From Deltaproteobacteria bacterium (GTDB lineage Bacteria > UBA10199 > SPLOWO2-01-44-7): 64,000 nt of DNA. The translations under genes were made by a program, and so were the position numbers. The stretch spans positions 24,537-88,536 of the forward strand of contig JAUSII010000122.1 in assembly GCA_030648035.1 (NCBI GenBank), read 5' to 3'. This document shows, one piece after another, positions 18,887 to 49,913 of this stretch. How positions within the stretch are numbered: the first letter of the stretch is position 1; every line of letters begins with the position of its first letter. Under the pieces are notes generated by a model. It saw only the letters and a program-made list of their open reading frames with translations. It was not told where the DNA came from and did no database searches.

Positions 18887-19051
18887 ATGGCAGGAGAATT
18901 CGATAAAGCCAAAGGGCGCATTAAAAAAGCGGTCGGGGAGTTGATAGGGAATGACAAGTTGAAGCGCGAAGGTTCGATCGACAAGTTGTCGGGCAACATA
19001 AAATCAGGAGTGGATAAGGTCAAAAAAGTTTTGGAAGGAAAGAAAGTCTAA
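18887..19051 (+). CDS. CsbD-family general stress protein (54 aa)
   Basis: KAKGRIKKAVGELIGNDKLKREG...VDKVKKVL is a CsbD-like bipartite helical repeat. GGGAGG RBS present. Confidence 0.75.
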   Translation: MAGEFDKAKGRIKKAVGELIGNDKLKREGSIDKLSGNIKSGVDKVKKVLEGKKV

Positions 19052-19081
19052 TCAAGAGAATTGGTTTTTGTGTCGGCATGC

Positions 19082-19654
19082 TTAATGTTTACAGGTTATG
19101 TCTGGCTTGAAAACGTTTCCGCTCATGTGGATTTTGGTATGCAGGTCTTTGCCGTTTTTTGCCAAGAAATTAGCGAGGCCTTCTTCAAGATTGAGAAATG
19201 TTTTTTTTGCTTTTACCACCTTGCCGTCAAATAGCACTACGTCAACATCAACATCGATCTGGGTCGTCTGCACCCAACCTTTTGCCTGAATATTGGCCAT
19301 TCCCTCTATGGCAGTATACCCGCATATGAGGCTGATTTTCGGATTGAGCTCTGCCGCTGGAACACGGCTGATCTGAATTTTCTGAAAATCAAAGCGCAAT
19401 GGCAACAGCTGAAAAGTCCCTTTTGCCTCAAGAGGAGCACTTTTAGAGGAACCCTCAATGATGAACGAGATTTTTGCGAAGCCTGTGAGTTCTGTCTCCA
19501 CTTTTGTCAAATGAACGGAATAGGGGAAAAGAAAAAAATTCCCTCCCCACTTGATAAAAAAATTCCGAAATAAAAAAATAGAAAACAGGAGCAGACTGAC
19601 AACAGAAAAAACAGCAATGTAGGTTTTCATTTTCATTTTCATTTTCATTTTCAA
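19082..19654 (-). CDS. membrane-anchored hypothetical protein (possible LEA_2/WHy-like)
   Basis: N-terminal TM anchor. The 5' end is built from an (AAAATG)5 hexamer repeat encoding (MK)5. Confidence 0.5.
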   Translation of the reverse strand: MKMKMKMKMKTYIAVFSVVSLLLFSIFLFRNFFIKWGGNFFLFPYSVHLTKVETELTGFAKISFIIEGSSKSAPLEAKGTFQLLPLRFDFQKIQISRVPAAELNPKISLICGYTAIEGMANIQAKGWVQTTQIDVDVDVVLFDGKVVKAKKTFLNLEEGLANFLAKNGKDLHTKIHMSGNVFKPDITCKH

Positions 19655-19706
19655 ATTTTAAAGCTTCCAAAATCAAAGCCCACGTTAACCCCTTTGCCCG
19701 ATCCTG

Positions 19707-21551: not shown

Positions 21552-23604
21552 CAGCCCGTTTCTTTTTTCGCCCGCCTCTTTAGCCCAAACGGATATGAGT
21601 CATTATTATGACGACACACAGAAACAGATGCAAAAGTCGGCCGAGGTCATCAACAAAATGGCGCAACAGCAGCAGCAAATGATGCAGAAATTGATGAACA
21701 CACCTCAAATGAAAAAAATGTCACAGAAAATGATGAAAGAGGGGGAAAAATATCATAACAATATGTTGGATGAATGGGATGTCGTGGTGCGTATGAACCT
21801 GCGATATTATCTGGAGCGCCACGACAGCGTCCAGTCAGATGGAAAAACGACACGCACCGACAGCCATGTTCTGTTGGAGGCCCAGCGTGACTTTAACGGA
21901 AAATTAATCAAGGCCTACACCCTCAACAAAAAGCATCCCGAAAAATATGAGTATGAGATAAATGGGCTCACCAGCGAAAAAGCCGATGTGAAAAAAGTGG
22001 CGTATGATTTGGCGATGCGCACTTCACCCAATGGGGGCCAGTCTCATTGTCACGGTGAAGCATGGAGCCAAGATCCCGGCTCAATTAGCGCAAAGCCTCT
22101 TGCAACAACAGAAAGCGCGGACAAAAGATATCACATCCATCTGGACGCCGGCATCACCATGGAAAGCCAAGACTGTTTTGCCTATCCGGTCCCTTATTTT
22201 AAAGCGGATCTTCTCCTCTCTAAAGACGATTTAGATGCCTTGATAAAAAAAGGATATTGGGAAAAAACATTTGATCAAAAATATCTTGCCGATGTGAACG
22301 CTGTGATCGGCGGTGCAGGTTGGCCCGGCGCGCCGCTTTACAGTCTGGTTTTGCTCGATCCGCAAAAATCCGGAAATTATCGGGACACACAGGTTCATAT
22401 CGAAATATTATTATCGCCGCGCATCAAGGGCCCGCATTTTGCCGCTTTCCCCAAGCAGACCCTCCACTTGCTCGATAATTATGTGACTCTCAAGGCGGAG
22501 TCGGTGCCGGGTTGGCAGGTGAGCGATATTAAACCAAAGGAAGGTTGGGCGGTCGCTTCAAAATATGTGAGAAAAGTTCCGGGGGCCAGCTCTTCCGGTT
22601 CCACTCTTCAATTAGCGCCATTAGCGCCGGGCAAAATTCATTTCGAAGTTGACTGGACAAGCCCCACCGGAAAAAAGGGAAAGAGTGATCCATTTGAATT
22701 TACGGTCGTGCAGCTCGAATTCAAAAAAGAGGGAAATTGCAACGGCTTTGATGATGTGGAATCGGATCCGGTGCCGACAGCCTCCATTTGCGTGGGTAAA
22801 GACAAAAATGTTTTACTGGAGGCCCTGCCAAGGGGTGTGCAAGTCGAGACCCGATTAGAAGCCGCTGATAGAAACGCCTTTCAGATAACGCCGCAAACGG
22901 TTCCCGGTTTTTCAGCTGAGCCGCAAAAAATCACGCTTCAGGGAATCAGCCCCAAACAAGATTCTACACTGACGGCCAAAATCAAAATCGGTGACGATGA
23001 TGAAGAATATCAGGTGGCTGCACAAATTATCACCGACACCCTCAAAATGCGTGATATCAAAGTGCTCCCATTTTTTCTCGATTCCGACCCACTGTCTTTG
23101 GTGCCACCCAGAATCAACGATATGTTCAATCAGGCTAAAACAGATTTGAAGCAGGCTTGTGTGACGCTCGATGTTCTACCAACCGAAACCCTCAAACCAA
23201 AAGAGGTTCCCAGTTATTTAGGCGGCGCCTCGATCCGTTATGATTTGGAAAACTGGAAACCTCTGGTCGATTATTCCCGCAAACTGGCAAATCACAAAGA
23301 TCAGGAGCTGACTGTTTTTATTGTCCCTCTCATTGTGACGCAAAAAGTGGATGCAAAAGGAAATATGACTCAAGACATAAATCCATTGGGTTTTCAAAAT
23401 GCCGACTATGTTTTTGTTTCGGAAGCGAGTTTTCCCCAACATATTCACGTTCTGGGGCACGAAATCGGCCACTATATTTTTAAAGATATGTATGTCTCAC
23501 TGGAGGGGTCAACCCACACCGATTTTTCCGATATGCTGATGTATCATACCAGCTCTAAAAAGTGTGAAATCCACCATGAGGAATGGCGCAATATTTCCCG
23601 TTAA
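21508..23604 (+). CDS. secreted hypothetical protein with C-terminal HExxH motif (putative Zn-metalloprotease)
   Basis: Signal peptide ...SPASLA|QTD; HVLGHEIGHYIF near the C-terminus. Start uncertain; divergent overlap with the LRR gene. Confidence 0.55.
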   Translation: MFFIFSRLSLLFLLISPFLFSPASLAQTDMSHYYDDTQKQMQKSAEVINKMAQQQQQMMQKLMNTPQMKKMSQKMMKEGEKYHNNMLDEWDVVVRMNLRYYLERHDSVQSDGKTTRTDSHVLLEAQRDFNGKLIKAYTLNKKHPEKYEYEINGLTSEKADVKKVAYDLAMRTSPNGGQSHCHGEAWSQDPGSISAKPLATTESADKRYHIHLDAGITMESQDCFAYPVPYFKADLLLSKDDLDALIKKGYWEKTFDQKYLADVNAVIGGAGWPGAPLYSLVLLDPQKSGNYRDTQVHIEILLSPRIKGPHFAAFPKQTLHLLDNYVTLKAESVPGWQVSDIKPKEGWAVASKYVRKVPGASSSGSTLQLAPLAPGKIHFEVDWTSPTGKKGKSDPFEFTVVQLEFKKEGNCNGFDDVESDPVPTASICVGKDKNVLLEALPRGVQVETRLEAADRNAFQITPQTVPGFSAEPQKITLQGISPKQDSTLTAKIKIGDDDEEYQVAAQIITDTLKMRDIKVLPFFLDSDPLSLVPPRINDMFNQAKTDLKQACVTLDVLPTETLKPKEVPSYLGGASIRYDLENWKPLVDYSRKLANHKDQELTVFIVPLIVTQKVDAKGNMTQDINPLGFQNADYVFVSEASFPQHIHVLGHEIGHYIFKDMYVSLEGSTHTDFSDMLMYHTSSKKCEIHHEEWRNISR

Positions 23605-24105: not shown

Positions 24106-25443
24106 TCACATTTTAAATTTCTTTTTCAAAGCATCCAGATCCTCCTGCCTTGCGCGCACACAGAGACAGGTGCCTTTGTCATCGTAGGATTCAGAGATCA
24201 CGCGCATCCGATTGCGAATCTCTCCGATCACTCCGGGGGTGGTGTACGGGATGAAGAGTTCGCTCTCAATCATGTCTGTTTCAAAAAAACCGATGATGGC
24301 ATCTCTTAAATACCGGATATTCTCTTTGTCAAAAGTCGAAATAAAAAATGCTTTTGGAAATTCTTTTTTTAACTGCAAAATTTCCGGCTCTTTCAGCAGA
24401 TCGCATTTGTTGAGCACCAACCAACTTGGGTTTTCGCCGGCACCGACTTCGCTTAAAACATTTTGCGTCACTTTCAGTTGACTGCGAAACGTCGGATCAG
24501 AGGCATCCACCAGATAGAGCAACAACGACGCATTCAATGCCTCATCCAAAGTTGATTTAAAGGAGGCGATAAGATCGTGGGGCAATTTTTTGATGAACCC
24601 GACGGTATCCGACAAAAGTATTCTGGGATGCGTCTCGGGATAGAGGGGCCTGATCGTGGTGTCGAGAGTTGCAAAAAGTTTGTCGGCCACCAGAACGTCG
24701 ATGCCGGTCATGACTTTCATCAGCGAAGATTTGCCGGCGTTGGTGTAACCGACAAGCGCCACCGCATTTTCCCGGTCTCGCCTTGCCCGCCGCACCTCAT
24801 GTTCATTGGCAATAGAGGCGAGTTCACTTTTTAATTCTTTGATGCGGTCCCGAATCTTGCGGCGATCCAGCTCCAGTTTGGTCTCACCGGCACCGACGCC
24901 ACCACCGCCAACCTGTTTGTCGTTGCCGGTTTCGCGAAGTCGCGGCGCCAGATAAGTGAGCCTTGCAATCTCCACCTGCAGACGGGCCGATCGCGTGCGC
25001 GCATGACGGCCGAAAATTTCGATGATCACACCGGTGCGATCGAGCACCGTCACACCGGTCGCACTTTCCATGTTGCGGAGTTGCGAAGGCGACAGCTCAC
25101 AATCGACCACGACAAGGTCGGCCTTCTCCTTGGGCAATTCAGTGTCGCCACCCTCTTCTTCTTCATCCACTGTTTTTGTTTTTGAAAATTGCAAGGCGGC
25201 TTTATGAATTTTTCGTTTCACAAGAGATTGAACAACACCGGTGCCCCCCGTCCACTGGGCCAGAATTTCCAGTTTGCCCTCCCCAAGAAAGAGGGGCGTT
25301 TTCAAAGAAGATTTTTTTTGGGAAACCTCGCCCACGACTTGGTGACCCAGAGTTTTGACCAGACGGCCAAGCTCTTTCATCGAAGCTTTGTGTTCTTCTG
25401 AAGTCGTTTTGGGAAGTTGAATTCCAACCAGAATAGTTTTCAT
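24106..25443 (-). CDS. hflX: GTPase HflX
   Basis: HflX N-domain plus G-domain (G1 GYTNAGKSS, DTVGF, NKCD). Confidence 0.9.
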   Translation of the reverse strand: MKTILVGIQLPKTTSEEHKASMKELGRLVKTLGHQVVGEVSQKKSSLKTPLFLGEGKLEILAQWTGGTGVVQSLVKRKIHKAALQFSKTKTVDEEEEGGDTELPKEKADLVVVDCELSPSQLRNMESATGVTVLDRTGVIIEIFGRHARTRSARLQVEIARLTYLAPRLRETGNDKQVGGGGVGAGETKLELDRRKIRDRIKELKSELASIANEHEVRRARRDRENAVALVGYTNAGKSSLMKVMTGIDVLVADKLFATLDTTIRPLYPETHPRILLSDTVGFIKKLPHDLIASFKSTLDEALNASLLLYLVDASDPTFRSQLKVTQNVLSEVGAGENPSWLVLNKCDLLKEPEILQLKKEFPKAFFISTFDKENIRYLRDAIIGFFETDMIESELFIPYTTPGVIGEIRNRMRVISESYDDKGTCLCVRARQEDLDALKKKFKM

Positions 25444-26435
25444 AATTTGAATCGCACTTTCAGTTCTGCCAAGGTTAACCGCTCTTCTTTCTGCAGTCGA
25501 CGAATTTCTTCAATCTGCAGAATCGCCTCTGGTGCATACAAATGATAACCCCCCTGGGAAAGTCTGTTTTCACGCAACAATCCTTCTTTGGTCCAATGAC
25601 GAATCGTGGCCGTGGTTTCACCGGTGGCCATGGCCAAGGCTCCGATTTTGAGAAGTTTATCCAGCGCGGGACTGGCAGGTGGCGCTTCTCCCTCCAACAT
25701 CTGTAACATCTCATCCAATGATCGAATGATGGCTGTGTAAATCACATGATAATATTTTTCTGCGCCTCGCCCCAACTGTGCACTCTCAATGCTTTTGATA
25801 TACTCCAACCGGTCTTCTTTGCGAATAAGCGCTGGTGGCAATTTCGTTTGCATCAGCAATAGATCCATCAGCAATCGCCCCGCACGGCCATTACCATCCA
25901 CAAACGGATGAATGCTTACAAAATTGAGATGGGCATCGGCGGCAATGGTGGCAGGATGCAGAGTGAGATTGCCATGCAACCATTGCATCAACTCCTGCAT
26001 AAGCGCAGAAATTTTCAACGGATTCGGCATGACAACGGTTGACCCCGAAATACGCACCGGAACTCTGCGATAGACACCGGCATTGTTATCATCAATGCCG
26101 TGGAGAATGATCGCGTGAATATCGAGCAGGGTTTTTTCGGCAATCTCATTGCGGGAGTGATCACAGAGCGTTGCAATAAAATCAAAAGCGCGGGCATGGT
26201 TGACCGCCTCGAGCTGTTCCACCAGCGTCTTGCCCGCAACAGTCAGGCCCTTCTCCACCACCAACGCAGTTTCCTGGCGCGTGAGAGTGTTACCCTCGAT
26301 GGCGTTAGAGGTGTAGGTCAGCTCAATTCGAAACCAAGCTTCGATATTCTTGAAAAATTCGGGTGTAAATGGCCGATGGTCGTCCAGTGCCTTGCACTTC
26401 TGGTCTATTATAAGGAGAAGGTCTTTCAAGACCAT
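25440..26435 (-). CDS. Fic family protein with C-terminal MerR-like HTH
   Basis: Fic motif HPFVDGNGRAGR; N-terminal inhibitory-type SNAIEGN ([ST]xxxE[GN]). The 4-nt overlap with hflX suggests an operon. Confidence 0.85.
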   Translation of the reverse strand: MVLKDLLLIIDQKCKALDDHRPFTPEFFKNIEAWFRIELTYTSNAIEGNTLTRQETALVVEKGLTVAGKTLVEQLEAVNHARAFDFIATLCDHSRNEIAEKTLLDIHAIILHGIDDNNAGVYRRVPVRISGSTVVMPNPLKISALMQELMQWLHGNLTLHPATIAADAHLNFVSIHPFVDGNGRAGRLLMDLLLMQTKLPPALIRKEDRLEYIKSIESAQLGRGAEKYYHVIYTAIIRSLDEMLQMLEGEAPPASPALDKLLKIGALAMATGETTATIRHWTKEGLLRENRLSQGGYHLYAPEAILQIEEIRRLQKEERLTLAELKVRFKL

Positions 26436-33105: not shown

Positions 33106-34923
33106 ATGAGAGTCCGCAAAAAGTTATTCACGAAGTTGCTCACGAAGTTGTTGGTGTCTTTGTCTCTGTCTCTGGCCACTCTGGTAACAGGTTGTGGCGG
33201 GAGTGATGGCGGAGGAGGGGTAGCAGGAACAACCACCGCCCTGGCCAACGTCGTTGTCCCCACTGTAAGTTCCACAAACCCTGCTGATGGTGATGTCGGT
33301 GTATTCATCAACAGAAAGGTGACTGCGGTATTCAGTGAGGATATGGACCCTGCAACCATCGACGACACAGTCTTTGTTTTAAACCAGGGAAGCGTGCCTG
33401 TTTCAGGTGTTGTAACCGCATCGGGTAACGCGGCCACCTTCACGCCCACAGGCAACTTGGGGATAAGCACCGTCTATACGGCAACGATCACGACCGGAGC
33501 CACCAGCTTGGCAGGTAATGGATTGGCCGCCAGTGAAGTATGGAGTTTTACGACAGGGACGACGGCAGATTCCACCGCCCCAACGGTGAGTTCCACAAAC
33601 CCGGTCAACGCGGCCACAGGTGTGGCCATCAACAGTACAGTCGCCGCATCCTTTAGCGAAGAGATGGATCCCCTGACGCTCACGACCTCCACTTTTCAAG
33701 TTTCAGGTCCTGACTCCGTTCTTGTCGCGGGGACGGTCAGCTATGCTTTGGTAGGCAACGTCGCAACCTTTACTCCCACAAGCAGTCTTGCAGTCAACAC
33801 CCTATTTACAGCAACAATCTCTACCGGTGCCAAAGACCTCGCGGGCAATGCGTTGGATTCCAGTAATGTATGGAGCTTTACAACAGGTGCAGTGGCGGAC
33901 AGTGTCGCCCCCACCGTCAGTTCCACCAACCCTGCTGATGCCGATGTGAGTGTGGCTCTTAACAAGACAATCTCCGCCACCTTCAGTGAGTCGATGAACG
34001 CCGCAACAATCACCACGGCAAACTACACATTGGCAGGGCCCGGCGCGGTTCCCGTCACAGGAACAGTCGACTATGTTTTGGCAACCAACATTGTAACCTT
34101 TACTCCCGCAAGCAATCTCGCACCGAGCACCTTATTTACAGCAACGATCAGCACCGGTGCCAAGGATCTCGCGGGGAATGCATTGGCTTCCAATAAAGTG
34201 TGGACCTTTACATCAGGGACAGAAGCGGCTCAGACTGTCGCTCAAACAGTAGTCCCCCTTGGATCGTCTTCCACCTTCGCGATTCTGGCTTCTGCGGCAA
34301 TCACCAGTATCCCGACTTCATCCGTTATCGGAGATATCGGTCTGACCCCGGATGCCGGATCCAATCTCACCGGGTTAACATGTTCAGAAATAACAGGCAC
34401 AGTCTACGTCACCAGTGCGGGTGGCAGTACTCTCGCCTGTCAGACCATCAGCGCGAGCATTCTCGATACCGCCAAAACCGATGCGGCCACTGCGTTCACC
34501 AATGCCAGGGACGCTGTTCGCGGAACACCTGCATCCATATCGGGCAATCTGAATGGTCTCACGCTGTATCCCGGGCTGTATGAATCGGGCACCTCGCTTG
34601 AGATATCCGCTGGCGGCATCCTTTATCTGGATGCTCAAGGCGATGCGGATGCCATCTTCGTCATCCGGAGTGAAACCTCCATCACCACACTGTCCACAAG
34701 CCAGATCGTCTTGACCAAAGGCGCAAAGGCCAACAACGTCTACTGGACAGCGGGAAGTGCGGTGACTCTGGGAGCCAACTCGATCATGAAGGGAACTTTC
34801 ATCGCGGGTACTGCGCTCACACTGCAGACCGGTGCAAACCTGGAAGGAAGAGCGTTGAACCAGGGTGCATCCGCCGCGGCGATTTCACTCGACGCCAGCA
34901 CTATTACCGTGCCTTCACCGTAG
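33106..34923 (+). CDS. secreted protein: 4 bacterial Ig-like (SbsA/Big_5-type) repeats + C-terminal DUF3494 ice-binding-like domain
   Basis: Lipobox/signal VTGCGG. Repeats APTVSSTNP...FTPxxNLAxxTLFTATIxTGAKDLAGNAL. C-terminal FAILASAAIT...GNLNGLTLYPGLYESG...NVYWTAGSAVTLGANS matches the DUF3494/IBP fold signature. Confidence 0.85.
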   Translation: MRVRKKLFTKLLTKLLVSLSLSLATLVTGCGGSDGGGGVAGTTTALANVVVPTVSSTNPADGDVGVFINRKVTAVFSEDMDPATIDDTVFVLNQGSVPVSGVVTASGNAATFTPTGNLGISTVYTATITTGATSLAGNGLAASEVWSFTTGTTADSTAPTVSSTNPVNAATGVAINSTVAASFSEEMDPLTLTTSTFQVSGPDSVLVAGTVSYALVGNVATFTPTSSLAVNTLFTATISTGAKDLAGNALDSSNVWSFTTGAVADSVAPTVSSTNPADADVSVALNKTISATFSESMNAATITTANYTLAGPGAVPVTGTVDYVLATNIVTFTPASNLAPSTLFTATISTGAKDLAGNALASNKVWTFTSGTEAAQTVAQTVVPLGSSSTFAILASAAITSIPTSSVIGDIGLTPDAGSNLTGLTCSEITGTVYVTSAGGSTLACQTISASILDTAKTDAATAFTNARDAVRGTPASISGNLNGLTLYPGLYESGTSLEISAGGILYLDAQGDADAIFVIRSETSITTLSTSQIVLTKGAKANNVYWTAGSAVTLGANSIMKGTFIAGTALTLQTGANLEGRALNQGASAAAISLDASTITVPSP

Positions 34924-35740: not shown

Positions 35741-37417
35741 TTAAGGAATGTTTTTAAGAATGCAAGTCAGGATGACTCCGTGGGGTATGTTGGGTTCCAC
35801 TTGAAAAGAGGCGCCTATGATGTGGGCACGGTTTTTCATGATCTTCAAGCCGATGCCTTTTGCATTTTGAGGATCCCCTACAAATCCTGTCCCTGCATCT
35901 TTGATGGTGAGGACAATGTTGCCGTTATTTCGAATGAAGCTGACATCGATCTCTTTGGCCTTCCCATGTTTGATCGCATTGACAATCCCCTCCTGCGCGA
36001 TTTTATAAATATGCGTGGCGACATCATTCTTGCTGATGAGAATGGGCTCGGGACAATAAAACCGGCACGAAACACCCGAAAGAGTCTGGTTGGCAGTCAA
36101 CTCTTCCAGCATATACATCAGGGAATTTCCTTCCAGCTCCCCCGGATAGAGGCCCCTCGCGGTATCCCGCGCCTGACTGGCGGCCCCATTGAGCAGGTCT
36201 GAAACTTTTTTCAAATCCGCCACGTCCAGATGTTTTCCCCTTTCCTTCTTTTGGGTGAGACTTTTCATCACCATCATGATCCCCGCCAGATCCTGGCAAA
36301 GACCGTCGTGAAGTTGTGCCCCAAAACATCTCTGCTCCGTATGGGTAATCTCCAATATTTCTTTGTTACTTTTAAGCAGTTCGGCGGTTCTTTCCTGAAC
36401 GCGCATTTCCATCTCTTCAAAAATAATCTGCAACCGCTCTTCCGCTTCTTTTCTCACAATAAATTGGCCCACCTGACCGCCAATGGTATCAAAGGTCTGC
36501 AACAACTCCTTATCAAAGCTTTTGCTCTCGATGCTGAAAAACTCCATGACCCCCAACATCTTTTTGCCCAGGCAAATCGGGAAAGCGACAGCACTCTTGA
36601 GACCCGCTTTCATCGCATGAGGAATACGTGAAAAATGGGGCGACTGGGCAAGATCGATGATCCAGCGCGGCTTTCCGCTCTCCCAGACTTCACATGGCAA
36701 TTCAACACCCTGCAAAAGTAGCGGCTTCTGATTGATTGCGAAAAACTCGGGGGCTTTTACCGAAGGGGAAAACCACGTCTGGTCGCAACGAATCTGGTGG
36801 GAGTCCGTATCCAGCATCCAGAAATTGCCGACGGCCCAACCCAGATTCTCTCCGATCGACTGGAGCACTTTTGGAAGGGCCTTTGCTGTGCCGGGAGCAA
36901 CGGCCAAAATCTGGCTGATCAGAAATTCGGTTTCGCGTTTGGCACTGGACTGACTCAATTGCTCCAACATGTTGGTGATTGTTTCGAGCTGATTTTCAAG
37001 CTCCCTTTTCTGCCGGTAAATCTCAATAAAAATATTCGCCTTGCTCCGGACCATGTGGGAGTCGAGCGGCTTGAGGAGAAAATCGACCGCGCCACTTTCA
37101 TAACCCTTGAACAAGAAGCCCTGGTCCTGGTCGGTCGCGGTGACAAAGATAATCGGAATGCTCCTGGTTTTTTTCGCCCCTCGCATGAGTTCAGCCAGTT
37201 CAAAGCCACTCATGCCGGGCATTTGCACATCAATGAGCGCCAGGGCAAATTCATCGCGCATCATAAACTCCAACGCCTCGGTTCCAGATTTGGCTTTGAA
37301 AATGGCGAGATCATCGCGCTTGAGCAATCCTTCCAGGGCAAGCAGATTGTCTTGCAGATCATCAACGAGGAGGATCTTGATCTGATTGGCATTTTTTTTC
37401 TTGTTTGGGTTCATCAT
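35741..37417 (-). CDS. hybrid REC-GAF-histidine kinase (HisKA_3/NarX-type HK)
   Basis: N-terminal receiver (ILLVDDLQDN...ALIDVQMPGMSG), GAF domain, an HisKA_3-type phospho-accepting His region, and HATPase (GIGLKIM). Confidence 0.85.
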   Translation of the reverse strand: MMNPNKKKNANQIKILLVDDLQDNLLALEGLLKRDDLAIFKAKSGTEALEFMMRDEFALALIDVQMPGMSGFELAELMRGAKKTRSIPIIFVTATDQDQGFLFKGYESGAVDFLLKPLDSHMVRSKANIFIEIYRQKRELENQLETITNMLEQLSQSSAKRETEFLISQILAVAPGTAKALPKVLQSIGENLGWAVGNFWMLDTDSHQIRCDQTWFSPSVKAPEFFAINQKPLLLQGVELPCEVWESGKPRWIIDLAQSPHFSRIPHAMKAGLKSAVAFPICLGKKMLGVMEFFSIESKSFDKELLQTFDTIGGQVGQFIVRKEAEERLQIIFEEMEMRVQERTAELLKSNKEILEITHTEQRCFGAQLHDGLCQDLAGIMMVMKSLTQKKERGKHLDVADLKKVSDLLNGAASQARDTARGLYPGELEGNSLMYMLEELTANQTLSGVSCRFYCPEPILISKNDVATHIYKIAQEGIVNAIKHGKAKEIDVSFIRNNGNIVLTIKDAGTGFVGDPQNAKGIGLKIMKNRAHIIGASFQVEPNIPHGVILTCILKNIP

Positions 37418-37542: not shown

Positions 37543-38403
37543 TCATTTCTTTTGAAAAATACGGTCCTTTTTTACAAAAGGATCAAAATATTTTGCATAT
37601 TGTGAAAACTGAATCGTCTCCTTGGCGCCCACACCCAAAAAACCTTTCCGGCAAAGCGACTCGTGAAAAAGTCCAAAGGCCCTGTCTTGCAGTTCGCGAT
37701 CAAAATAGATAAGCACATTCCGGCACGAGATCAACTGTGTTTCCATAAACACCGCATCGGTCACGAGACTATGATCTGCGAAGGTGATTTTTTTCTTCAA
37801 AATACTTTTGAATTTCGCCAGATTATCCGTTGCCGTGTAGTAGTCCGAAAGCGACCGCTTTCCACCCGACTTCTGGTAGTTCTCGGCGAAGCTCTGGATC
37901 ATTTTCAATTTAAAAACACCCTTTTCAGCTTTTTCAAGACTTCTGGGGTTGATATCAGTTGCATACAGGGTTGTGCGCGAAAGCAACCCCTCTTCCTGCA
38001 GCAGAATCGCAAGCGAATAGACCTCTTCTCCCGTACTGCATCCGGCGACCCAGACTTTGAGGGAAGGATAGGTTTTGAGCAATGGAAATACTTTTTGCCT
38101 CAACGCCAGAAAATAAGTGGGGTCGCGAAACATCTCGCTCACAGGAATCGTGAGAGATTCAATCAGATCATGGAAAAAATCAGAATCTTGGAGGATTTTT
38201 TTTTGAAGTATCGGGAGGGTGCCGCACCCCATCCGCTCCATCGCATGCACCATCGTTCGTTTCATCGAAGCGGGCGAATAATGCCGAAAATCGTAGTCGT
38301 ATTTAAGATTGATCGCCTCAAGCATGAGCTTCAGTTCGATCTCAAATTGCGGGTTCAGAATCCGTTCCATAAGCCTTAATTGCGCCCCAAGCTTGGCGTC
38401 CAA
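37543..38403 (-). CDS. CheR-type protein-glutamate O-methyltransferase
   Basis: CheR N-terminal helical domain plus SAM-binding core VWVAGCSTGEEVYSLAILL. The 3' end overlaps the start of the giant HK by 28 nt. Confidence 0.85.
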   Translation of the reverse strand: MDAKLGAQLRLMERILNPQFEIELKLMLEAINLKYDYDFRHYSPASMKRTMVHAMERMGCGTLPILQKKILQDSDFFHDLIESLTIPVSEMFRDPTYFLALRQKVFPLLKTYPSLKVWVAGCSTGEEVYSLAILLQEEGLLSRTTLYATDINPRSLEKAEKGVFKLKMIQSFAENYQKSGGKRSLSDYYTATDNLAKFKSILKKKITFADHSLVTDAVFMETQLISCRNVLIYFDRELQDRAFGLFHESLCRKGFLGVGAKETIQFSQYAKYFDPFVKKDRIFQKK

Positions 38404-41400
38404 ACCCGGATGACCGAGAAGAGCTGATGAAGATCGATGGGCTTGGAAAGATAATCATTCGCGCCGGCCTCCATGCAAAGCACCTGATCGTTCTTCGTGG
38501 CTTTGGCTGTCACAGCGATGATGGGAAGTTTTGAAAACCGTTTTTGTTTTCTGATCTCGCGCGTCGCCTGATAGCCATCCATCTCGGGCATCATGATATC
38601 CATGAGGACAAGATCTATGAGAGGATGATCTTTCAGTTTTGCGAGAGCCTCTTTTCCGTTTCTTGCAACCTCGATGTTGGCCCCTTTTTGCTCCAGAGCC
38701 GCGGTCAGCGCAAAGATGTTTCTGACATCGTCATCGACAACGAGAATCATTCTTCCTTTGAAGACATCTTCCCGACTCCGCAAGGTTTTCAGCAATTGCC
38801 GGTTTTCGGGTGAGAGTTTGGACTCCACGCGGTGAAGAAAAAGGCCGACTTCATCGAGCAGTCTCTCCGGAGACCTGGCTCCTTTGATAATGATCGAGCG
38901 GGAATATTTTCGAAGCGTGTCTTCTTCGTCCCGGGAGAGTGAGCGCCCGGTATAAATGATGACGGGGGGAAAGGAGGCCAGCTCTTTTTGTTCCGTCATT
39001 TTCTTCAATAGCTCTTCGCCCGACATATCCGGGAGTTTCAGATCAATCACCATGCAATCATAGACGGTTTTTTTGAGAGCATCGAGTGCCTCTTCCGCCA
39101 GGGCCACAGCCGTGATCTCGATATCGGGATTGGCAATGAGTTTGACCATGCTTTCTCTTTGAAGTTTGTTGTCCTCGACAATCAGAACGCGCTTTAACTT
39201 CTGGGAGAGATTGAATTCAATCTTGGCCAAAGCGGCCTTGAGTGCTTCGCGCTTGGCGGGTTTCAGCGTGTATCCGATGGCCCCCATCTGCATGGCCTTT
39301 TCTGTGTAATCATGCGCCGACGCAATATGGACCGGAATGTGCCGGGTCTTCGGATCTTCTTTGAGCTGGTCGAGCACCGTCAATCCCGAATGATCGGGAA
39401 GCATCATATCGAGCAGAATTGCATCTGGAATAAGACTTTGAGCAAACCCAAGCCCCTCTTCAGCATCTTGCGCGACCACGCACTTGTAGTTCAGCTCATG
39501 GGCCAGATCAAAAAGAATCTGGGCAGACTGCGATTCATCTTCGATCACCAACAACACGCGTCCGGGCTTTGCCCCGCGAGATTTGAGAGTGCCCCGATCA
39601 TCTGCAAAAGGCAGAGGCTGGATTCGCTCTACGCGTGGTTTGACCTGCACTGCGACGGGTAATGACGATGAATAGGCCTTTGGAGATGCCGACACAACGT
39701 GGGACTCGTCATAGGTCTCGGGCAGGAGAAGTGTGAAGCGGCTCCCTTCACCGGGCACACTCTCGACTGCAACAGTGCCACCGAGAAGTCTCGCAAGATC
39801 TCGTGTGATGGAAAGTCCAAGACCTGTGCCACCATATTTTCGATTGGTCGTCCCATCGGCTTGACGAAACGCCTCAAAAATCACTTCTTGTTGGGCTTTT
39901 GGAACCCCGATACCGGTGTCGATCACCGCGAGCGAGAGCTTCCCTTCCGCGCTCCGGGACACATGCAGTATGACCTGTCCTTTTTCCGTGAACTTGAATG
40001 CATTGGAAAGCAGATTCTTCAGAATTTGTTCCAGTCGTTGACGATCTGTGAGCATCGTCTCTGGCACACCCGGATCGATCTTGATTTGAAATTGGAGTTT
40101 CTTTTCGCGGGCCACGGGATCAAAAGTTTTTTCAAGAGTATTAAAAACACTGGGGAGAAACACGTTCTCGGGCCTGATCTCCAGTTTTCCGGCCTCCACT
40201 TTCGAGAGATCGAGAATATCGTTGATGAGATTCAGCAGGTCATTGCCTGCAGACGAGATGGAATGTGCATACTGGACTTGCTCCACGGTCAGGTTTCCAC
40301 CTGCATTGTCCGCGAGAAGCTTCGCCAGAATCAGCGAGCTGTTGAGCGGGGTCCGAAGCTCGTGGGACATATTCGCGAGAAATTCTGACTTATACTGGCT
40401 GGCTCTTTGCACTTCGTCGGACCTCTCTTCAAGCAGTGTCTGCGCTTTGTTGAGGGCCTCATTGTTTTCGTTTAAAATGTCGCGCTGTTGTTCAAGCTTT
40501 TCGTTGGTCTGCTCCAACTCCGATTGCTGATTTTTGAGTTTCGTCTGGGACTCCTGCAATGCGCGCGATTGGTCCTCAAGTTCATCATTGGTCGCTTTCA
40601 ACTCTGCTTGCTGGGTTTGCAGTTCTTCGGTCAAATCCTGCGATCTTTCGAGAAGCTCCTGCTGTTTCTTGCGGCTGATGGAGGTGTTGATCGCAATCCC
40701 GATATTCTCGGACACATGCTCCAGAAATGTTTTTTGATGTTCGGAAAAGGATGCAAAAGAAGCCAGCTCGATCACACCATTGACCTCTCCCTCATAAAAA
40801 ACAGGGGCCAGAAGCAGAGAACTCGGGGTGGAGTCGCCTAAGTCCGAACGGATTTTTCCAAAGTAACGCGAGGGCACTTTTTCGAGAAGGATGGGTCGCT
40901 TTTCCAACGCGGCCTGACCGACCAGCCCCTCTCCAATGGCAATCGTCTTCTCTTTGTCATCCAATTTGGAATAGGCATAACCGCTCACGCGCTTGAGCAT
41001 TTTTTCTTCGGTAACGTAGTAAAAAGCGCCCATCTGGGCATTCAAAAATGGCGCAAGATGACTCAAAACGCTTTGCCCCAGGCGTGAAACATCCTGCTCG
41101 CCGCGCATTTTGTCAGAGAGAGTGATCTGGCCTTCACGAAGAAATTCAAGTTCGCGTGCCTTTTCCCGGAGTGAGGCTTCGGCGTGCTTTCTTTCCGTGA
41201 TATCGCGCTCGGTGGTGGCAATGCCGGTCAGTTTTCCTTTGTCATCTGTGAGTTTGGTATTGATCAGCCAAACATCGATGATCCTGCCGTCTTTATGCTT
41301 TCGCTTGGTCTCAAGATTGGGCAATAATTCTCCGCGTTTCAGCGAGGCAAAAAATCCACGGGCTTCTTCCTGATATTCCGTCGGAACAGTATCAACGATA

Positions 41401-42347
41401 TTTTTGCGCAGTGCTTCCGCTTCTGAATAGCCATACATGGTTTCAGCACCCCGGTTCCATGCCAGGATGTTTCCTTCCAGATCCTGAAAGGTGATGGCAT
41501 CATTCGAATCTTGAATAACCGTCGCCATACGACGAAACTTTTCCAGTGCTCCCATGCGCTCGGAAATATCGCGTTCGGTGGTGGCGATGCCGGTCAGCTT
41601 TCCCTTATCATCCGTGAGTTTGGTGTTGGTCAGCCACACATCGACGATCCGGCCATCTTTGGTTTTTCGTTTTGTTTCCAGATTGGGCACCAGCTCGCCG
41701 CGTTTCAACGAGGCCAAAAATTCACGCGCTTCAGCCTGATATTCGGTGGGCACGGTATCGACGATATTCATGCGCAATGCTTCTGCCTGCGAATAACCAT
41801 AAATTTGTTCAGCGCCATGGTTCCATGCCAGGATGTTGCCTTCCAGATCCTGAAAGGTGATGGCATCATTTGAATCTTGAATAACCGTCGCCATGCGACG
41901 AAACTTTTCCAGTGCGCCCATGCGCTCGGAAATATCGCGTTCGGTGGTGGCGATGCCGGTCAGCTTTCCCTTGTCATCCGTGAGTTTGGTGTTGGTCAGC
42001 CAGACATCAACGATTCTGCCATCTTTGGTTTTTCGTTTTGTCTCCAAGTTGGGCACCAACTCGCCGCGTTTCAGCGAGGCAAGAAATTCACGCGCTTCAG
42101 CCTGATATTCTGTGGGCACGGTATCGACGATATTCATGCGCAAGGCTTCTGCTTCTGAATAGCCATACATGGTTTCAGCACCCTGGTTCCATGCCAAGAT
42201 GTTACCTTCCAAATCCTGAAAGGTGATGGCATCATTCGAATCTTGAATAACAGTCGCCATACGGCGAAATCTTTCCAACGACCCCAATTGCTTGGCAACC
42301 GCTTTGGGGCGTTTCACTTTGCCGTGCTGTTTTAATTTTGGGGCCAT
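38376..42347 (-). CDS. multi-sensor hybrid histidine kinase: 3 tandem PAS, GAF, coiled coil, HisKA-HATPase, 3 receiver domains (1323 aa)
   Basis: Three ~122-aa PAS units (two almost identical), GAF, Q/E-rich coiled coil, H-box MSHELRTPLN, G-box GTGLGLSI, then three D-containing REC domains. Confidence 0.9.
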   Translation of the reverse strand: MAPKLKQHGKVKRPKAVAKQLGSLERFRRMATVIQDSNDAITFQDLEGNILAWNQGAETMYGYSEAEALRMNIVDTVPTEYQAEAREFLASLKRGELVPNLETKRKTKDGRIVDVWLTNTKLTDDKGKLTGIATTERDISERMGALEKFRRMATVIQDSNDAITFQDLEGNILAWNHGAEQIYGYSQAEALRMNIVDTVPTEYQAEAREFLASLKRGELVPNLETKRKTKDGRIVDVWLTNTKLTDDKGKLTGIATTERDISERMGALEKFRRMATVIQDSNDAITFQDLEGNILAWNRGAETMYGYSEAEALRKNIVDTVPTEYQEEARGFFASLKRGELLPNLETKRKHKDGRIIDVWLINTKLTDDKGKLTGIATTERDITERKHAEASLREKARELEFLREGQITLSDKMRGEQDVSRLGQSVLSHLAPFLNAQMGAFYYVTEEKMLKRVSGYAYSKLDDKEKTIAIGEGLVGQAALEKRPILLEKVPSRYFGKIRSDLGDSTPSSLLLAPVFYEGEVNGVIELASFASFSEHQKTFLEHVSENIGIAINTSISRKKQQELLERSQDLTEELQTQQAELKATNDELEDQSRALQESQTKLKNQQSELEQTNEKLEQQRDILNENNEALNKAQTLLEERSDEVQRASQYKSEFLANMSHELRTPLNSSLILAKLLADNAGGNLTVEQVQYAHSISSAGNDLLNLINDILDLSKVEAGKLEIRPENVFLPSVFNTLEKTFDPVAREKKLQFQIKIDPGVPETMLTDRQRLEQILKNLLSNAFKFTEKGQVILHVSRSAEGKLSLAVIDTGIGVPKAQQEVIFEAFRQADGTTNRKYGGTGLGLSITRDLARLLGGTVAVESVPGEGSRFTLLLPETYDESHVVSASPKAYSSSLPVAVQVKPRVERIQPLPFADDRGTLKSRGAKPGRVLLVIEDESQSAQILFDLAHELNYKCVVAQDAEEGLGFAQSLIPDAILLDMMLPDHSGLTVLDQLKEDPKTRHIPVHIASAHDYTEKAMQMGAIGYTLKPAKREALKAALAKIEFNLSQKLKRVLIVEDNKLQRESMVKLIANPDIEITAVALAEEALDALKKTVYDCMVIDLKLPDMSGEELLKKMTEQKELASFPPVIIYTGRSLSRDEEDTLRKYSRSIIIKGARSPERLLDEVGLFLHRVESKLSPENRQLLKTLRSREDVFKGRMILVVDDDVRNIFALTAALEQKGANIEVARNGKEALAKLKDHPLIDLVLMDIMMPEMDGYQATREIRKQKRFSKLPIIAVTAKATKNDQVLCMEAGANDYLSKPIDLHQLFSVIRVWTPSLGRN

Positions 42348-42393: not shown

Positions 42394-43068
42394 CTACTTT
42401 TCAGCGAGACACCATTTAACAGCATATTGGATGAGCTCATGAGAATTTTTCAGGTCCAGCTTGTTTTTAATATTGGCGTAATGCGATTCGATCGTCTTCA
42501 CACTCACAAAAAGTGACTCGGCAATGCGGTTGGTGGCATACCCCTGACCAATGAGTCTCAAGACCTCCAATTCGCGATCGCTTAACTTGCCCGTAGTGGC
42601 CCCGATCAGAGATTTGCCCCCTCCACTGAACTGGTGCATCAGGGTCTCTTTCATACGATCGCTCACATAAATATCACCACTGACCACTTTGCGAATAGCC
42701 GTTGTCACATAATCGGTGGCGGACTGTTTCATGAGATAACCTTTGGCCCCTGCCTTTAAAACACGTTCCACATGAAGAGACTCATCATACATTGAAAGAA
42801 TCAGGACGAGCGTTTTGGGATAATTGGCAACAAGATTTTTGGTGAGTTCGATACCGCTGGTTCCCTGCAGGGAGATATCCACGATCGCCACGTCGGGTTT
42901 GATCTTCGCAATGCTCTTCAGGGCTTCATCAGAAGTTCCGGCCTCTCCAACAGAGATCATATCGCTCTCCTGATTGATGAGCTGGGCCAGGCCCTGTCTG
43001 ACAATCGGATGATCATCAACGATAAAAACCTTCGTTTTTTCCACTTTATTTTTCAACGCGGTATTCAT
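42394..43068 (-). CDS. LuxR/NarL-family response regulator (REC + HTH)
   Basis: REC domain (VFIVDDHPIVRQGL...AIVDISL) plus LuxR-type HTH (LSDRELEVLRLIGQGYATNRIAESLFVSVKTIESH). Confidence 0.9.
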   Translation of the reverse strand: MNTALKNKVEKTKVFIVDDHPIVRQGLAQLINQESDMISVGEAGTSDEALKSIAKIKPDVAIVDISLQGTSGIELTKNLVANYPKTLVLILSMYDESLHVERVLKAGAKGYLMKQSATDYVTTAIRKVVSGDIYVSDRMKETLMHQFSGGGKSLIGATTGKLSDRELEVLRLIGQGYATNRIAESLFVSVKTIESHYANIKNKLDLKNSHELIQYAVKWCLAEK

Positions 43069-48350: not shown

Positions 48351-49913
48351 ATGATGAGAAATTATAAGATGTTGTTCACGGCTTTATTTCTGGCCGCTTT
48401 CATAGCTGGATGCGGAGGTGGTAACGGGGAAGAGGTGGCAGAAACACCCGCCGCCACTACTACTACCACCACGACCACCAGCACGACGACAGACGCCACC
48501 GATACAACGGCGGGCATCACCGGCACGGCGACAGGCACCACCAGTGCAGCGGTCGACACCACTGCACCCACGGTGAGTTCCACAGACCCCGTCAATGCGG
48601 CCACAGATGTGGCGATTGACAAAAAAATCTCTGCAACCTTCGACGAAGAGATGGATTCCCTGACAGTCACAACCACAAATTTTCTGGTCACAGGACCCGG
48701 AACAACTTCCGTCTCCGGAACTCTCGCTTTGGTGGGCAACATCGCAACCTTTACTCCTGGAAGCAATCTCGCGGCCAACACCTTATTTACGGTAACGGTC
48801 ACCACCGGTGCCAAGGATATTGCAGGCAATGCATTGGCCAGTGATAACGTATCGACCTTTACCACCGGTGCAACGGCAGACTTGACCGCCCCCACCGTGA
48901 GTTCCACCAATCCTGCCAACGCTGATGGGAGCGTGGCCATTAACAAAAAAGTCACCGCCACCTTTAGTGAGTCGATGGATTCTGCAACAATCATCACGGC
49001 AAACTATACAGTGACGGGACCTGGAGCAACCCCCGTCGCAGGAACTCTGGCGTTGGTTGGCAACGTTGCAACATTTACCTCTGACAGCAATTTCGCACCC
49101 AGCACACTGTTTACAGCAACGATCACCACCGGGGCCAAAGACGCCGCTGGCAATGCGTTGGCCTCCGATAAAGTGTGGACCTTTACAACAGGAACAGAGG
49201 CGGCTCAAAGCGTCGCTCAAGCAACAGTGCCCCTTGGATCATCCTCAAATTTTGCAATTCTGGCTTCTGCCGCAATCACCAACGTCGCGACTTCCGTGAT
49301 TAATGGAGATGTCGGTTTGACTCCGGATGCCGGATCCAACATCAGCGGGTTCAGCGCTCCAGACACATGCCCGGAAGTGACAGGCAAGATATACGCCGTG
49401 GATGCAACAGGTCCTGCGTGCATTATACCTGCGCAACAAAATCCGACGCTTCTTTCGGATGCCAAAACCGATGCTGGAATTGCATTCACCAATGCCAGAA
49501 ACGCTGTTCGCGGAACGCCTGCATCCATCTCGGGCAATCTGAATGGGCTGACACTGTATCCCGGCTTATATGAATCCGGAACTTCGCTTGAAATATCTGC
49601 AGGTGGCTTTCTTTATCTGGATGCTCAAGGCGATGCGAATGCCGTCTTCGTTATTCGGAGTGAAACCTCTATCACCACGCTGTCCACCAGTGAAGTTGTT
49701 TTGACCAAGGGCGCAAAAGCGGCCAACGTCTACTGGATAGCGGGGAGTTCGGTAACTCTTGGAGCGAACTCGATCATGAAGGGAACCTTTGTAGCAGGAA
49801 CATCCATTGCGCTACAGACCGGTGCAAACCTGGAAGGAAGAGCATTGAATCAGGGTGCGTCGGCTGAAGCGGTTACACTGGATTCCAGCACCATCACCGT
49901 GCCTTCTCTGTAA
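48351..49913 (+). CDS. secreted paralog: Thr-rich linker + 2-3 Ig-like repeats + DUF3494 ice-binding-like domain
   Basis: Lipobox FIAGCGG and poly-Thr linker. Its Ig repeats and C-terminal DUF3494 region are closely similar to 33106-34923 and almost co-linear over the last 250 aa. Confidence 0.85.
   Translation: MMRNYKMLFTALFLAAFIAGCGGGNGEEVAETPAATTTTTTTTSTTTDATDTTAGITGTATGTTSAAVDTTAPTVSSTDPVNAATDVAIDKKISATFDEEMDSLTVTTTNFLVTGPGTTSVSGTLALVGNIATFTPGSNLAANTLFTVTVTTGAKDIAGNALASDNVSTFTTGATADLTAPTVSSTNPANADGSVAINKKVTATFSESMDSATIITANYTVTGPGATPVAGTLALVGNVATFTSDSNFAPSTLFTATITTGAKDAAGNALASDKVWTFTTGTEAAQSVAQATVPLGSSSNFAILASAAITNVATSVINGDVGLTPDAGSNISGFSAPDTCPEVTGKIYAVDATGPACIIPAQQNPTLLSDAKTDAGIAFTNARNAVRGTPASISGNLNGLTLYPGLYESGTSLEISAGGFLYLDAQGDANAVFVIRSETSITTLSTSEVVLTKGAKAANVYWIAGSSVTLGANSIMKGTFVAGTSIALQTGANLEGRALNQGASAEAVTLDSSTITVPSL

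Follow-up and report, generated by a model that had tools for sequence, protein, structure and literature searches.

A CheR-type methyltransferase encoded next to a PAS-GAF hybrid histidine kinase in a deltaproteobacterium: a probable RsbK/RsbM-type module with a LuxR-type output

We identified a four-gene two-component cluster in the window, the 64-kb stretch of DNA of an uncultured deltaproteobacterium that was analysed as a whole, with a LuxR-type regulator, a PAS-GAF hybrid kinase, a CheR-type methyltransferase and a REC-GAF-HisKA_3 kinase following one another on the minus strand. We consider it likely that this locus is an RsbK/RsbM-type module, in which the CheR enzyme methylates glutamates of the kinase's own signalling helix (S-helix) and thereby gates a cascade running from the hybrid kinase through the REC-HisKA_3 kinase to the LuxR regulator. 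The direct observations are of homology, synteny, conserved motifs and the absence of che genes. The first-pass annotation had already suggested that the CheR acts on the coiled coil of the adjacent kinase instead of on chemoreceptors, an interpretation that is largely right and not new, since reports on RsbK/RsbM had presented it in 2012 and 2015, the idea of kinase methylation in this pair reportedly going back to Chen et al. 2012. CheR-type methylation of a sensor-kinase signalling helix was demonstrated more than a decade ago and no new mechanism is presented here; what is new is a member of the known RsbK/RsbM-type module with a variant sensor and a variant output. The genes of the cluster are the following.

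42394..43068, minus strand: NarL/LuxR-family response regulator (REC plus GerE HTH; Pfam Response_reg 1.5e-25, GerE 7.2e-17)
38376..42347, minus strand: soluble hybrid histidine kinase of 1323 aa, RsbK/CfcA homologue (Pfam and BLASTP)
37543..38370, minus strand: CheR-type SAM-dependent protein-glutamate methyltransferase of 275 aa, RsbM/CfcB kinase-linked subfamily (Pfam CheR 1.5e-37)
35741..37417, minus strand: second kinase of 558 aa, REC-GAF-HisKA_3-HATPase_c (Pfam)

The gene for the LuxR regulator comes first in the cluster, with 46 nt between it and the kinase start, and its product is probably the terminal output, in line with the transcriptional (LuxR) end of the pathway that had been expected from the sequence. 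The second kinase, encoded 125 nt downstream of the CheR gene by a putative member of the operon, is probably the intermediate between the hybrid kinase and the regulator. HisKA_3-type kinases and NarL/LuxR-type regulators are an established pairing, and the second kinase and the LuxR regulator of the window form such a coherent output pair, which recurs in a related locus (L165) with the regulator placed as in the window. Promoter and terminator scans of the cluster gave matches at or below the shuffled expectation.

Both the 1323-aa ORF (38376..42347) and the CheR-like ORF (37543..38403 at its longest) are real and carry the corresponding Pfam domains, but their geometry is the reverse of that first described, in which the cheR stop was placed 28 nt inside the start of the kinase gene. 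As both genes are on the minus strand, the kinase gene is the upstream one, and its stop codon TAA (38378-38376) is separated by 5 nt from an ATG at 38370. The longest CheR ORF starts from a TTG at 38403, so that the kinase stop falls inside it, and only with this start would the two genes overlap by 28 nt. Judging from the alignment, however, the true start is almost certainly the ATG at 38370: all 13 aligned relatives begin at the Met that it encodes, and the database protein 100% identical to the window CheR has 275 aa, as have nearly all close homologues. With CheR starting past the kinase stop, the two genes are therefore tightly juxtaposed without overlap. Of the earlier proposal, the translational coupling probably holds, whereas the overlap depends on the TTG start. 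A gap of 0-16 nt between kinase and CheR gene is found in the window, in its clade, in Pseudomonas putida and in Bacillus.

Concerning the methyltransferase itself, the Pfam CheR catalytic domain scores 129 bits and the residues of the SAM-binding motif are invariant across the aligned subfamily, so that the enzyme looks active as far as its sequence can tell. It is 64.5% identical to P. putida CfcB (the protein in L001), and 42.8% identical to the RsbM-like protein of Bacillus (E 1e-82) versus 34.5% to the chemotaxis CheR of B. subtilis, while the latter two share 28% with each other. By these comparisons the window CheR belongs to the RsbM lineage and not to the chemotaxis CheR lineage. An exact-sequence lookup of the protein gave no match.

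Considering its bona fide CheR catalytic domain and its database name, 'protein-glutamate O-methyltransferase CheR', the enzyme could also be a normal chemotaxis CheR, with chemoreceptors from another part of the genome as substrates and an incidental position beside the kinase, all the more as the view spans 64 kb of the genome and MCPs may exist outside it. We regard this as highly improbable. The protein reaches 80 bits against the cut-off of 435 for the NCBIfam CheR equivalog PRK10611, and the receptor-contacting N-terminal domain (CheR_N) stays below the Pfam cut-off with 17 versus 27 bits. Besides its greater closeness to RsbM, identities to plasmid-borne CheR-like genes are bimodal, reaching 51% or more inside the subfamily and no more than 35% outside it. 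In agreement with the first-pass annotation, a Pfam search of all ORFs of at least 149 aa in the 64-kb window found no MCPsignal, CheW, CheA-type or CheB_methylest domain. Furthermore, in a survey of 168 related CheR loci, 109 of which had complete flanks, a GAF hybrid kinase was encoded directly upstream of the CheR gene in 100 of these 109 across many phyla, CheW occurred in none of the 168 and MCP-like ORFs in only two. The CheR subfamily is thus almost always kinase-linked.

The window belongs to a clade with PAS-type kinases, represented by five loci (L003, L004, L165, L166 and L167) with CheR proteins 73-79% identical to that of the window. The neighbours of this clade were collected one by one, and a metagenome scan recovered the clade only as one short contig. 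The module in its trans form (RsbK, CfcA and window type) was counted in at least 591 species-representative genomes.

The hybrid kinase has the PAS-GAF architecture initially assigned to it, and Pfam together with the translation gives the order three PAS, GAF, S-helix, HisKA (H662), HATPase_c and three REC, with the features listed here.

41200..42277, minus strand: tandem array coding three near-identical PAS domains (Tandem Repeats Finder: period 366 bp, equal to 122 aa, 2.9 copies, 87% matches; Pfam: three PAS stretches)
40689..41096, minus strand: GAF domain, residues 418-553 (Pfam GAF_2 7.4e-18)
40398..40682, minus strand: S-helix, residues 556-650, proposed methyl-accepting segment (translation, heptad layout and homology to the RsbK S-helix)
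40623-40625, 40602-40604 and 40581-40583, minus strand: codons of the candidate acceptor glutamates E575, E582 and E589, each directly preceding the heptad Leu, in heptads one to three
40188..40391, minus strand: HisKA/DHp domain with the phospho-accepting His662 (codon 40362-40364) in SHELRTPLN (Pfam HisKA 7e-18)
39717..40046, minus strand: HATPase_c catalytic domain (Pfam 8.3e-29)
38409..39635, minus strand: three receiver (REC) domains (Pfam Response_reg, three stretches, 4e-66)

In each of the three receivers the acidic pocket, the phospho-acceptor Asp, the Thr/Ser and the Lys are kept, as read from the translation. The Q/E-rich coiled coil between GAF and HisKA noticed in the first reading spans residues of about 556-650 and consists of 11 unbroken heptads, one core position being Leu in ten heptads and Val in one, the other Q, N or S (with one R). 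E575, E582 and E589 align in the same heptad phase with E432, E439 and E446 of RsbK, of which E439 and E446 are reportedly the methylation sites mapped by Chen et al. 2012. Across the family, the heptads keep a constant register to the His, with the same phase for 349 of 374 EEL Leu residues, and differences in helix length are mostly whole heptads; column identity is 0.55 in the S-helix versus 0.36 in the GAF domain. Compared with the family consensus, the window helix is degenerate, in that the first Glu is missing from two of its three 'EE' pairs (QAEL, NDEL).

The expected acceptor motif of the first-pass annotation, an MCP-like methylation consensus, was not borne out: it gave no match, against about 0.1-0.3 expected by chance. 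The hybrid kinase and the second kinase were both searched, with [ASTG]2-x2-[EQ]2-x2-[ASTG]2, with the [AS]xxEExx[AST] of that annotation and with a relaxed form, and gave zero matches, a weak negative given a chance expectation below two. The putative acceptor motif suggested by the alignments is instead a '[Q/N]-x-E-L' heptad, different from the MCP-type pentad. Two further patterns were considered and dropped. An MCP-style alternation of E and Q tied to the presence of CheB was rejected, because the EE columns are 80-99% Glu across the family with essentially no Gln, and no relation to CheB presence was apparent to the eye. Loss of EE pairs as a general companion of CheB loss failed as well, being confined to the window clade, while the CheB-less loci L021, L040, L049, L050 and L060 keep their pairs.

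The experimental basis for a kinase substrate comes from Bacillus cereus, in which RsbM methylates RsbK in a 14C-SAM assay, the methylation having been reported on the signalling helix from earlier work of the same group (PMC4574943). Since the mapped substrate is known only in Bacillus, and since a REC-kinase gene lies downstream of CheR, directly or past a CheB gene, in most related loci and is nearly as conserved as the upstream kinase, the window CheR might act on another component of the module, that is, on the downstream REC-kinase or a response regulator. This reading is, however, very unlikely. RsbK/RsbM of Bacillus works without a second kinase, and yet RsbM has its substrate in RsbK (PMC4574943), and of all partners only the GAF-S-helix hybrid kinase is shared by the versions of Bacillus, Pseudomonas and the window. 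In addition, the two-heptad xEEL motif was present in 62 of 67 CheR-adjacent kinases versus four of 79 other kinases of the same loci, and all four exceptions are upstream kinases of the module itself that are split or displaced, so that the downstream kinases are without the motif; the second kinase of the window has no match to it either. According to these counts, the S-helix is a feature specific to CheR-adjacent kinases, which favours the hybrid kinase as the predicted substrate.

Methylation-based adaptation, as the first-pass annotation had phrased it, is the part of the earlier interpretation that did not hold up. Adaptation requires a methylesterase, and because no esterase is linked to the cluster, methylation would serve as a gate or set-point and not as chemotaxis-style feedback adaptation. 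A true reversible loop, in which the window CheR methylates the S-helix and a CheB-type esterase from another part of the genome removes the methyl groups, is nevertheless worth weighing: a small CheB without REC follows the CheR gene directly in 97 of the 109 loci with complete flanks, which makes reversible methylation the probable ancestral or majority state of the module. For the window we still consider it unlikely, as the 64 kb contain no CheB_methylest domain and CheB is absent from all five loci of the window clade. The CheB proteins of the module also have no receiver domain, so that classical phospho-feedback is not apparent even in loci that have CheB. The RsbM enzyme of B. cereus is an orphan without a partner esterase, deletion of that species' only CheB leaves the pathway unaffected, and loss of RsbM renders the pathway constitutive, meaning that RsbM holds the kinase off (PMC4574943).

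By analogy with these systems, methylation of the window kinase, its specific sites, the order of the phosphorelay and the regulation of target genes may be envisaged as follows. The methyltransferase would be co-translated with the kinase and, using SAM, would form methyl-esters on Glu residues at the exposed face of the S-helix, the polar-core coiled coil that links the GAF domain to the phospho-accepting His, with E575, E582 and E589 as the likeliest acceptors. The resulting neutralisation of charge could shift the coiled coil and alter its interaction with the C-terminal receivers, thereby setting how easily PAS and GAF input switches the kinase on. From the hybrid kinase, phosphoryl groups would be handed to the HisKA_3 kinase, at its receiver, and then to the LuxR regulator, which would then change transcription.

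For the window organism, this preferred reading would mean that a gene annotated as 'chemotaxis CheR' is a dedicated modifier of a two-component kinase and not a chemotaxis gene. Moreover, the B. cereus RsbK/RsbM pair, the P. putida Cfc system and hundreds of unnamed loci, the first two and such loci being treated separately in the literature that we found, could be joined in one family with a recognisable acceptor helix, which would provide a practical rule for re-annotating such CheR and CheB genes as well as specific Glu residues for mutation. More speculatively, and with considerable doubt on our side, the '[Q/N]-E-E-L' polar-core helix might represent a second widespread methyl-accepting class apart from the MCP regions, served by a dedicated CheR, usually together with a REC-less CheB, in trans and, in at least one examined case, in cis; the window clade would then have lost the esterase and trimmed two EE pairs, leaving a one-way mark. 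If so, the mark in this clade would be erased only by protein turnover and act as a slow molecular memory on a transcriptional pathway, being neither a gate nor an adaptation loop.

Compared with the MCP-CheR/CheB system of chemotaxis, the fold and chemistry of the enzyme are the same, namely SAM-dependent methyl-esterification of Glu, and the substrate proposed for the window is likewise a coiled coil rich in Glu through which a histidine kinase is controlled. In contrast, the window locus shows no MCP, CheA, CheW or CheY logic, the proposed substrate helix lies inside the kinase itself, and the proposed acceptor context consists of [Q/N]-x-E-L heptads in place of the EE/QE pentads flanked by small residues in MCPs. 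The locus also has no esterase, hence presumably no feedback adaptation, and its probable output is transcriptional. The CheB-CheR-PAS-kinase fusions of Azospirillum, Nostoc and Sinorhizobium, annotated as 'chemotaxis protein CheB', resemble the window in having non-chemotaxis CheR domains tied to kinases, and the one example examined, from Azospirillum (L168), has an N-E-E-L heptad coil directly after its CheR domain. They differ in carrying the enzyme domains in cis with the kinase, and the CheR domains of the fusions are only about 31% identical to the window CheR.

Closer to the window is the cfcABCDE system of P. putida, comprising the hybrid kinase CfcA, CfcB (CheR3), CfcC (CheB), CfcD and CfcE, whose published architecture is found in L001. 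Both systems have a GAF-S-helix hybrid kinase encoded directly upstream of CheR and a REC-kinase downstream, and neither is a chemotaxis system, CfcB/CheR3 having been reported without a chemotaxis function (PMC4951495). In the Cfc system the sensor is of CHASE3 type, a CheB without REC is encoded between CheR and the second kinase, and a single-domain REC is also present, whereas the window has PAS sensors, a HisKA_3 kinase and a LuxR regulator, and no CheB. The known Cfc output is the diguanylate cyclase CfcR, and the outputs of the module therefore vary. In the literature on Cfc, we found no role or substrate reported for CfcB or CfcC.

As the Bacillus reference, we used the pair on the L170 chromosome, in which a kinase gene and a CheR-like gene lie beside sigB and a REC-PP2C gene; a Lysinibacillus plasmid with sigB was discarded as a reference, since it carries a B. 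subtilis-type RsbU operon and no RsbK. The L170 kinase (896 aa, CHASE3-HAMP-GAF-HisKA-HATPase-REC) carries H505 and D827 exactly as the published RsbK and is followed by the 285-aa CheR-like gene after a gap of 16 nt. In both systems, the CheR-type gene directly follows the hybrid kinase gene in the same orientation, no methylesterase is linked, the methyltransferases are 43% identical, and homology of the kinases extends over GAF, S-helix, HisKA, HATPase and the C-terminal REC, with 34% identity over 687 aa (GAF to REC, E 3e-114, BLASTP) and 57% between the RsbK REC and the last REC of the window kinase. The xEEL Leu-heptad signalling helix, which ends in S(K/Q)YKSEFLANMSHELRTP, is likewise shared by the two kinases. 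RsbK differs as a membrane protein with CHASE3-HAMP, one REC and nine heptads, whereas the soluble window kinase combines three tandem PAS with three RECs and 11 heptads and has two of the three leading EE pairs cut to a single Glu. The output of RsbK is the REC-PP2C phosphatase RsbY with sigma-B partner switching. In the 64-kb window, where genes of SpoIIE/PP2C, RsbV/W or sigma-B-like type are absent, the probable output is a REC-GAF-HisKA_3 kinase together with a LuxR regulator. The RsbY/sigma-B output is what defines the B. cereus pathway, and not what defines the kinase-methyltransferase pair.

The cluster comprises four genes, all co-oriented on the minus strand of the window and identified from ORFs and Pfam matches:

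43068..42394, minus, NarL/LuxR-type response regulator
42347..38376, minus, hybrid histidine kinase, 1323 aa
38370 (ATG) to 37543 (end), minus, CheR-type methyltransferase
37417..35741, minus, REC-GAF-HisKA_3-HATPase kinase, 558 aa

The kinase stop codon (TAA, 38378-38376) lies inside the longest possible CheR ORF (TTG start at 38403). The ATG at 38370, 5 nt past that stop, is the start used by a 100%-identical database protein, and close CheR relatives are nearly all 275 aa long, with the 13 aligned with the window protein starting at the same Met. Because CheR starts at this ATG, the two genes are juxtaposed without overlap and are plausibly translationally coupled. The first-pass annotation had described an overlap with cheR as the upstream gene; the stop and ATG positions reverse this order and remove the overlap, and geometry apart the observed pairing is real.

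The Pfam scan of every window ORF of at least 149 aa found no MCPsignal, CheW, CheA-type or CheB_methylest domain, in agreement with the earlier statement that the window lacks MCP, CheB, CheA and CheW. The window CheR carries the full CheR SAM-binding domain (Pfam), and the SAM-binding-type motifs AGCSTGEEVYS, TDIN and CRNVLIYF are almost wholly invariant across its relatives. With the CheR equivalog model it reaches only 80 bits, where the cut-off is 435, and its N-terminal domain, in chemotaxis CheR the receptor-contacting part, falls under the Pfam cut-off. At least 591 species-representative genomes encode a relative with 45-65% identity, from taxa including Pseudomonas, Burkholderiales, Sphingomonadales, Caulobacterales, Planctomycetota, Verrucomicrobiota, Acidobacteriota, Bdellovibrionota, Desulfobacterota, Bacteroidota and Nostoc, and the identity of plasmid CheRs to the window CheR is bimodal (at least 51% within the subfamily, at most 35% for all others).

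To survey the neighbourhood, ORFs were called in 168 related loci and annotated by profiles seeded from the window proteins, with gene-order counts taken on the 109 loci with complete flanks. A GAF-containing hybrid kinase lies directly upstream of CheR in 100 of these 109 (CHASE3+GAF in 79, PAS+GAF in 4), a small receiver-less CheB (~195 aa) directly downstream in 97, and a REC-kinase next after CheB in most; across all 168 loci, profile annotation found no CheW, and MCP-like ORFs in only two. Given these recurrent neighbours and the near absence of chemotaxis partners, the kinase-CheR adjacency is a conserved module and not chance. The module CheBs (loci L001-L167) consist of a catalytic domain of about 190-200 aa and lack the receiver by which chemotaxis CheB is controlled. 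In the window's own clade, comprising five further loci with PAS-type kinases (L003, L004, L165, L166, L167) whose CheRs are 73-79% identical to that of the window, the order is consistently PAS-GAF kinase, CheR, REC-kinase, and CheB is absent from all five modules; the upstream LuxR regulator and the HisKA_3 second kinase also occur in L165.

Most neighbours of the window cluster encode secreted or surface proteins (Big_5 with Ice_binding-like, twice; He_PIG/SBBP; TSP_3; OmpA); an isolated receiver and genes of ordinary housekeeping function are also present. In the window, as in two of four clade relatives (L165, L166), the module has Big_5/Ice_binding-like proteins as flanking neighbours; these may be targets of its regulation, or belong to a surface-protein island inherited along with it.

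Window 33106-34923, plus, Big_5 Ig-like repeat and Ice_binding-like secreted protein (domain scan)
Window 48351-49913, plus, Big_5 Ig-like repeat and Ice_binding-like secreted protein (domain scan)
L165 11457-12695, Big_5 and Ice_binding-like secreted protein
L166 2125-3627 and 11724-13037, Big_5 and Ice_binding-like secreted proteins
Window 992-1082, minus, tRNA-Leu (taa)
Window 1727-1800, minus, tRNA-Cys (gca)
Window 15667-15741, plus, tRNA-His (gtg)

A 269-aa ORF (1030-1839) with a weak LAGLIDADG match overlaps tRNA-Leu and tRNA-Cys and is probably spurious. Directly after tRNA-His starts a low-GC stretch (16000-22000; 0.41-0.43 versus ~0.50 elsewhere), ~1.8 kb of which (19654-21427) is without any ORF of 90 aa or more, and which may be an integrated island. 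One 331-aa ORF (25440-26435, minus) joins a Fic/DOC domain to a C-terminal MerR-type HTH.

The window kinase runs from three PAS domains through GAF, a long coiled coil and HisKA (His662) to HATPase_c and three complete receiver domains (Pfam, translation). The Pfam scan and translation of the 1323-aa ORF revealed neither an HPt domain nor a hydrophobic N-terminus, and from the latter we take the kinase to be soluble. The PAS triplet is a tandem DNA repeat (41200-42277, minus; period 366 bp, 2.9 copies, 87% matches), which implies that domains of the sensor region were amplified recently; for the clade relatives, one or two PAS domains are listed.

The GAF-to-HisKA coiled coil, or signalling helix (S-helix), spans residues 556-650 in 11 uninterrupted heptads, with one core position Leu in ten and Val in one, and the other Q, N or S (one R). 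It begins LQTQQAE LKATNDE LEDQSRA LQESQTK LKNQQSE LEQTNEK, ends LEQQRDI LNENNEA LNKAQTL LEERSDE VQRASQY and continues into KSEFLANMSH662ELRTPLN. The family consensus is LLEETQRQSEELQxQQEELRVxNEELEEQ...QQAELEQTNxQLEEQ...S(R/Q)YKSEFLANMSHELRTP. Of the kinases adjacent to a CheR gene, 62 of 67 carry a two-heptad xEEL motif; among the remaining kinases of these loci it occurs in four of 79, all four being split or displaced versions of the module's upstream kinase. In 349 of 374 cases the Leu residues keep one fixed phase to the phospho-His, length differences are mostly whole heptads (RsbK 9, window 11, CfcA 12), and the helix is more conserved than GAF (column identity 0.55 versus 0.36), features which together suggest an S-helix specific to CheR-linked kinases. 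The helix of RsbK, the Bacillus cereus kinase paired with the methyltransferase RsbM (T430EELQVQ SEE439LQTQ AEE446LQMQ), aligns with T573EELQTQ QAE582LKAT NDE589LEDQ of the window kinase, in which E582 and E589 are kept as Glu and the preceding Glu of each pair is replaced (A, D). Chen and colleagues reportedly mapped RsbM methylation in 2012 to E439 and E446, which each immediately precede a heptad Leu; if this is correct, E582 and E589 would be their equivalents. The MCP-type acceptor motif expected earlier in this coil did not materialize, its consensus being absent from the window kinase in a motif search. An Azospirillum sp. TSH58 plasmid (L168, CDS 4278-8921) encodes a 1548-aa CheB-CheR-kinase fusion annotated 'chemotaxis protein CheB', whose heptad coil ...ASNEALRVANEEILSINEELQSSNEEMETSKEELQSLNEEL... 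just after the CheR domain is of the same NEEL helix kind as in CheR-linked kinases, which suggests a methyl acceptor in cis.

The Pseudomonas putida member (65% identical) has a CHASE3-GAF hybrid kinase, CheR, CheB, REC-kinase and REC in the order of the published cfcABCDE cluster, in which CfcA is the kinase activating the diguanylate cyclase CfcR, and CfcB and CfcC are a CheR/CheB pair. B. cereus RsbK is a CHASE3-HAMP-GAF-S-helix-HK-CA-REC hybrid kinase, methylated in a 14C-SAM assay by RsbM, which is encoded just downstream in the same operon (PMC4574943; precedent also in PMC12848376, PMC9912610); this methylation is reported to lie on the signalling helix. Without RsbM the sigma-B pathway is constitutively active, no esterase partners RsbM, deletion of the sole B. 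cereus CheB leaves the pathway unaffected, and RsbK-like kinases are reported in 10 phyla (PMC4574943). As Bacillus reference pair we used NZ_CP093325.1 (L170), the region being found with SigB as landmark: an 896-aa kinase, with His505 and Asp827 in exact published RsbK numbering, lies beside sigB and a REC-PP2C gene, and a 285-aa CheR-like gene follows 16 nt past it. Although PLSDB lists this 5.52 Mb record as 'plasmid p1' of Bacillus sp. N5-665, it is evidently chromosomal; it carries sigB, an RsbK/RsbM/RsbY-like gene set and a second CheR-like match, and has almost no gene table.

Pairwise comparisons of methyltransferases and kinases
Window CheR vs RsbM-like (L170): 42.8% identity, E 1e-82
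P. putida CfcB vs RsbM-like (L170): 48% identity
Window CheR vs B. subtilis chemotaxis CheR: 34.5% identity
RsbM-like (L170) vs B. subtilis chemotaxis CheR: 28% identity
Window kinase 377-1041 vs RsbK (L170) 232-891: 34% identity, E 3e-114

RsbM, CfcB and the window CheR therefore form one kinase-linked lineage, and the window kinase and RsbK are homologous from GAF to REC. This homology, the conserved kinase linkage and the S-helix support the core idea of the first-pass annotation, a CheR acting on the kinase coiled coil, and CheR methylation of the S-helix is the most likely mechanism. CheR, made together with the hybrid kinase, would methyl-esterify Glu residues exposed on the S-helix of that same kinase. 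This would alter how the coiled coil packs and, in line with the proposal for RsbK, how the C-terminal receiver domain(s) dock on DHp/S-helix, and so set the threshold for activation by PAS/GAF inputs. HisKA_3 kinases pair with NarL/LuxR regulators; given this pairing, the lack of HPt and the conserved REC-kinase, phosphoryl groups would pass from the hybrid kinase through the REC of the HisKA_3 kinase to the LuxR regulator. The adaptation proposed earlier finds no support, as the clade is without CheB and resembles the orphan RsbM of B. cereus; provided that no other part of the genome encodes an esterase, a gate or set-point describes the methylation better than feedback adaptation does. The system is thus of the already known RsbK/RsbM-Cfc kind, from which the window variant differs in its soluble PAS sensor, three receivers and HisKA_3/LuxR output.
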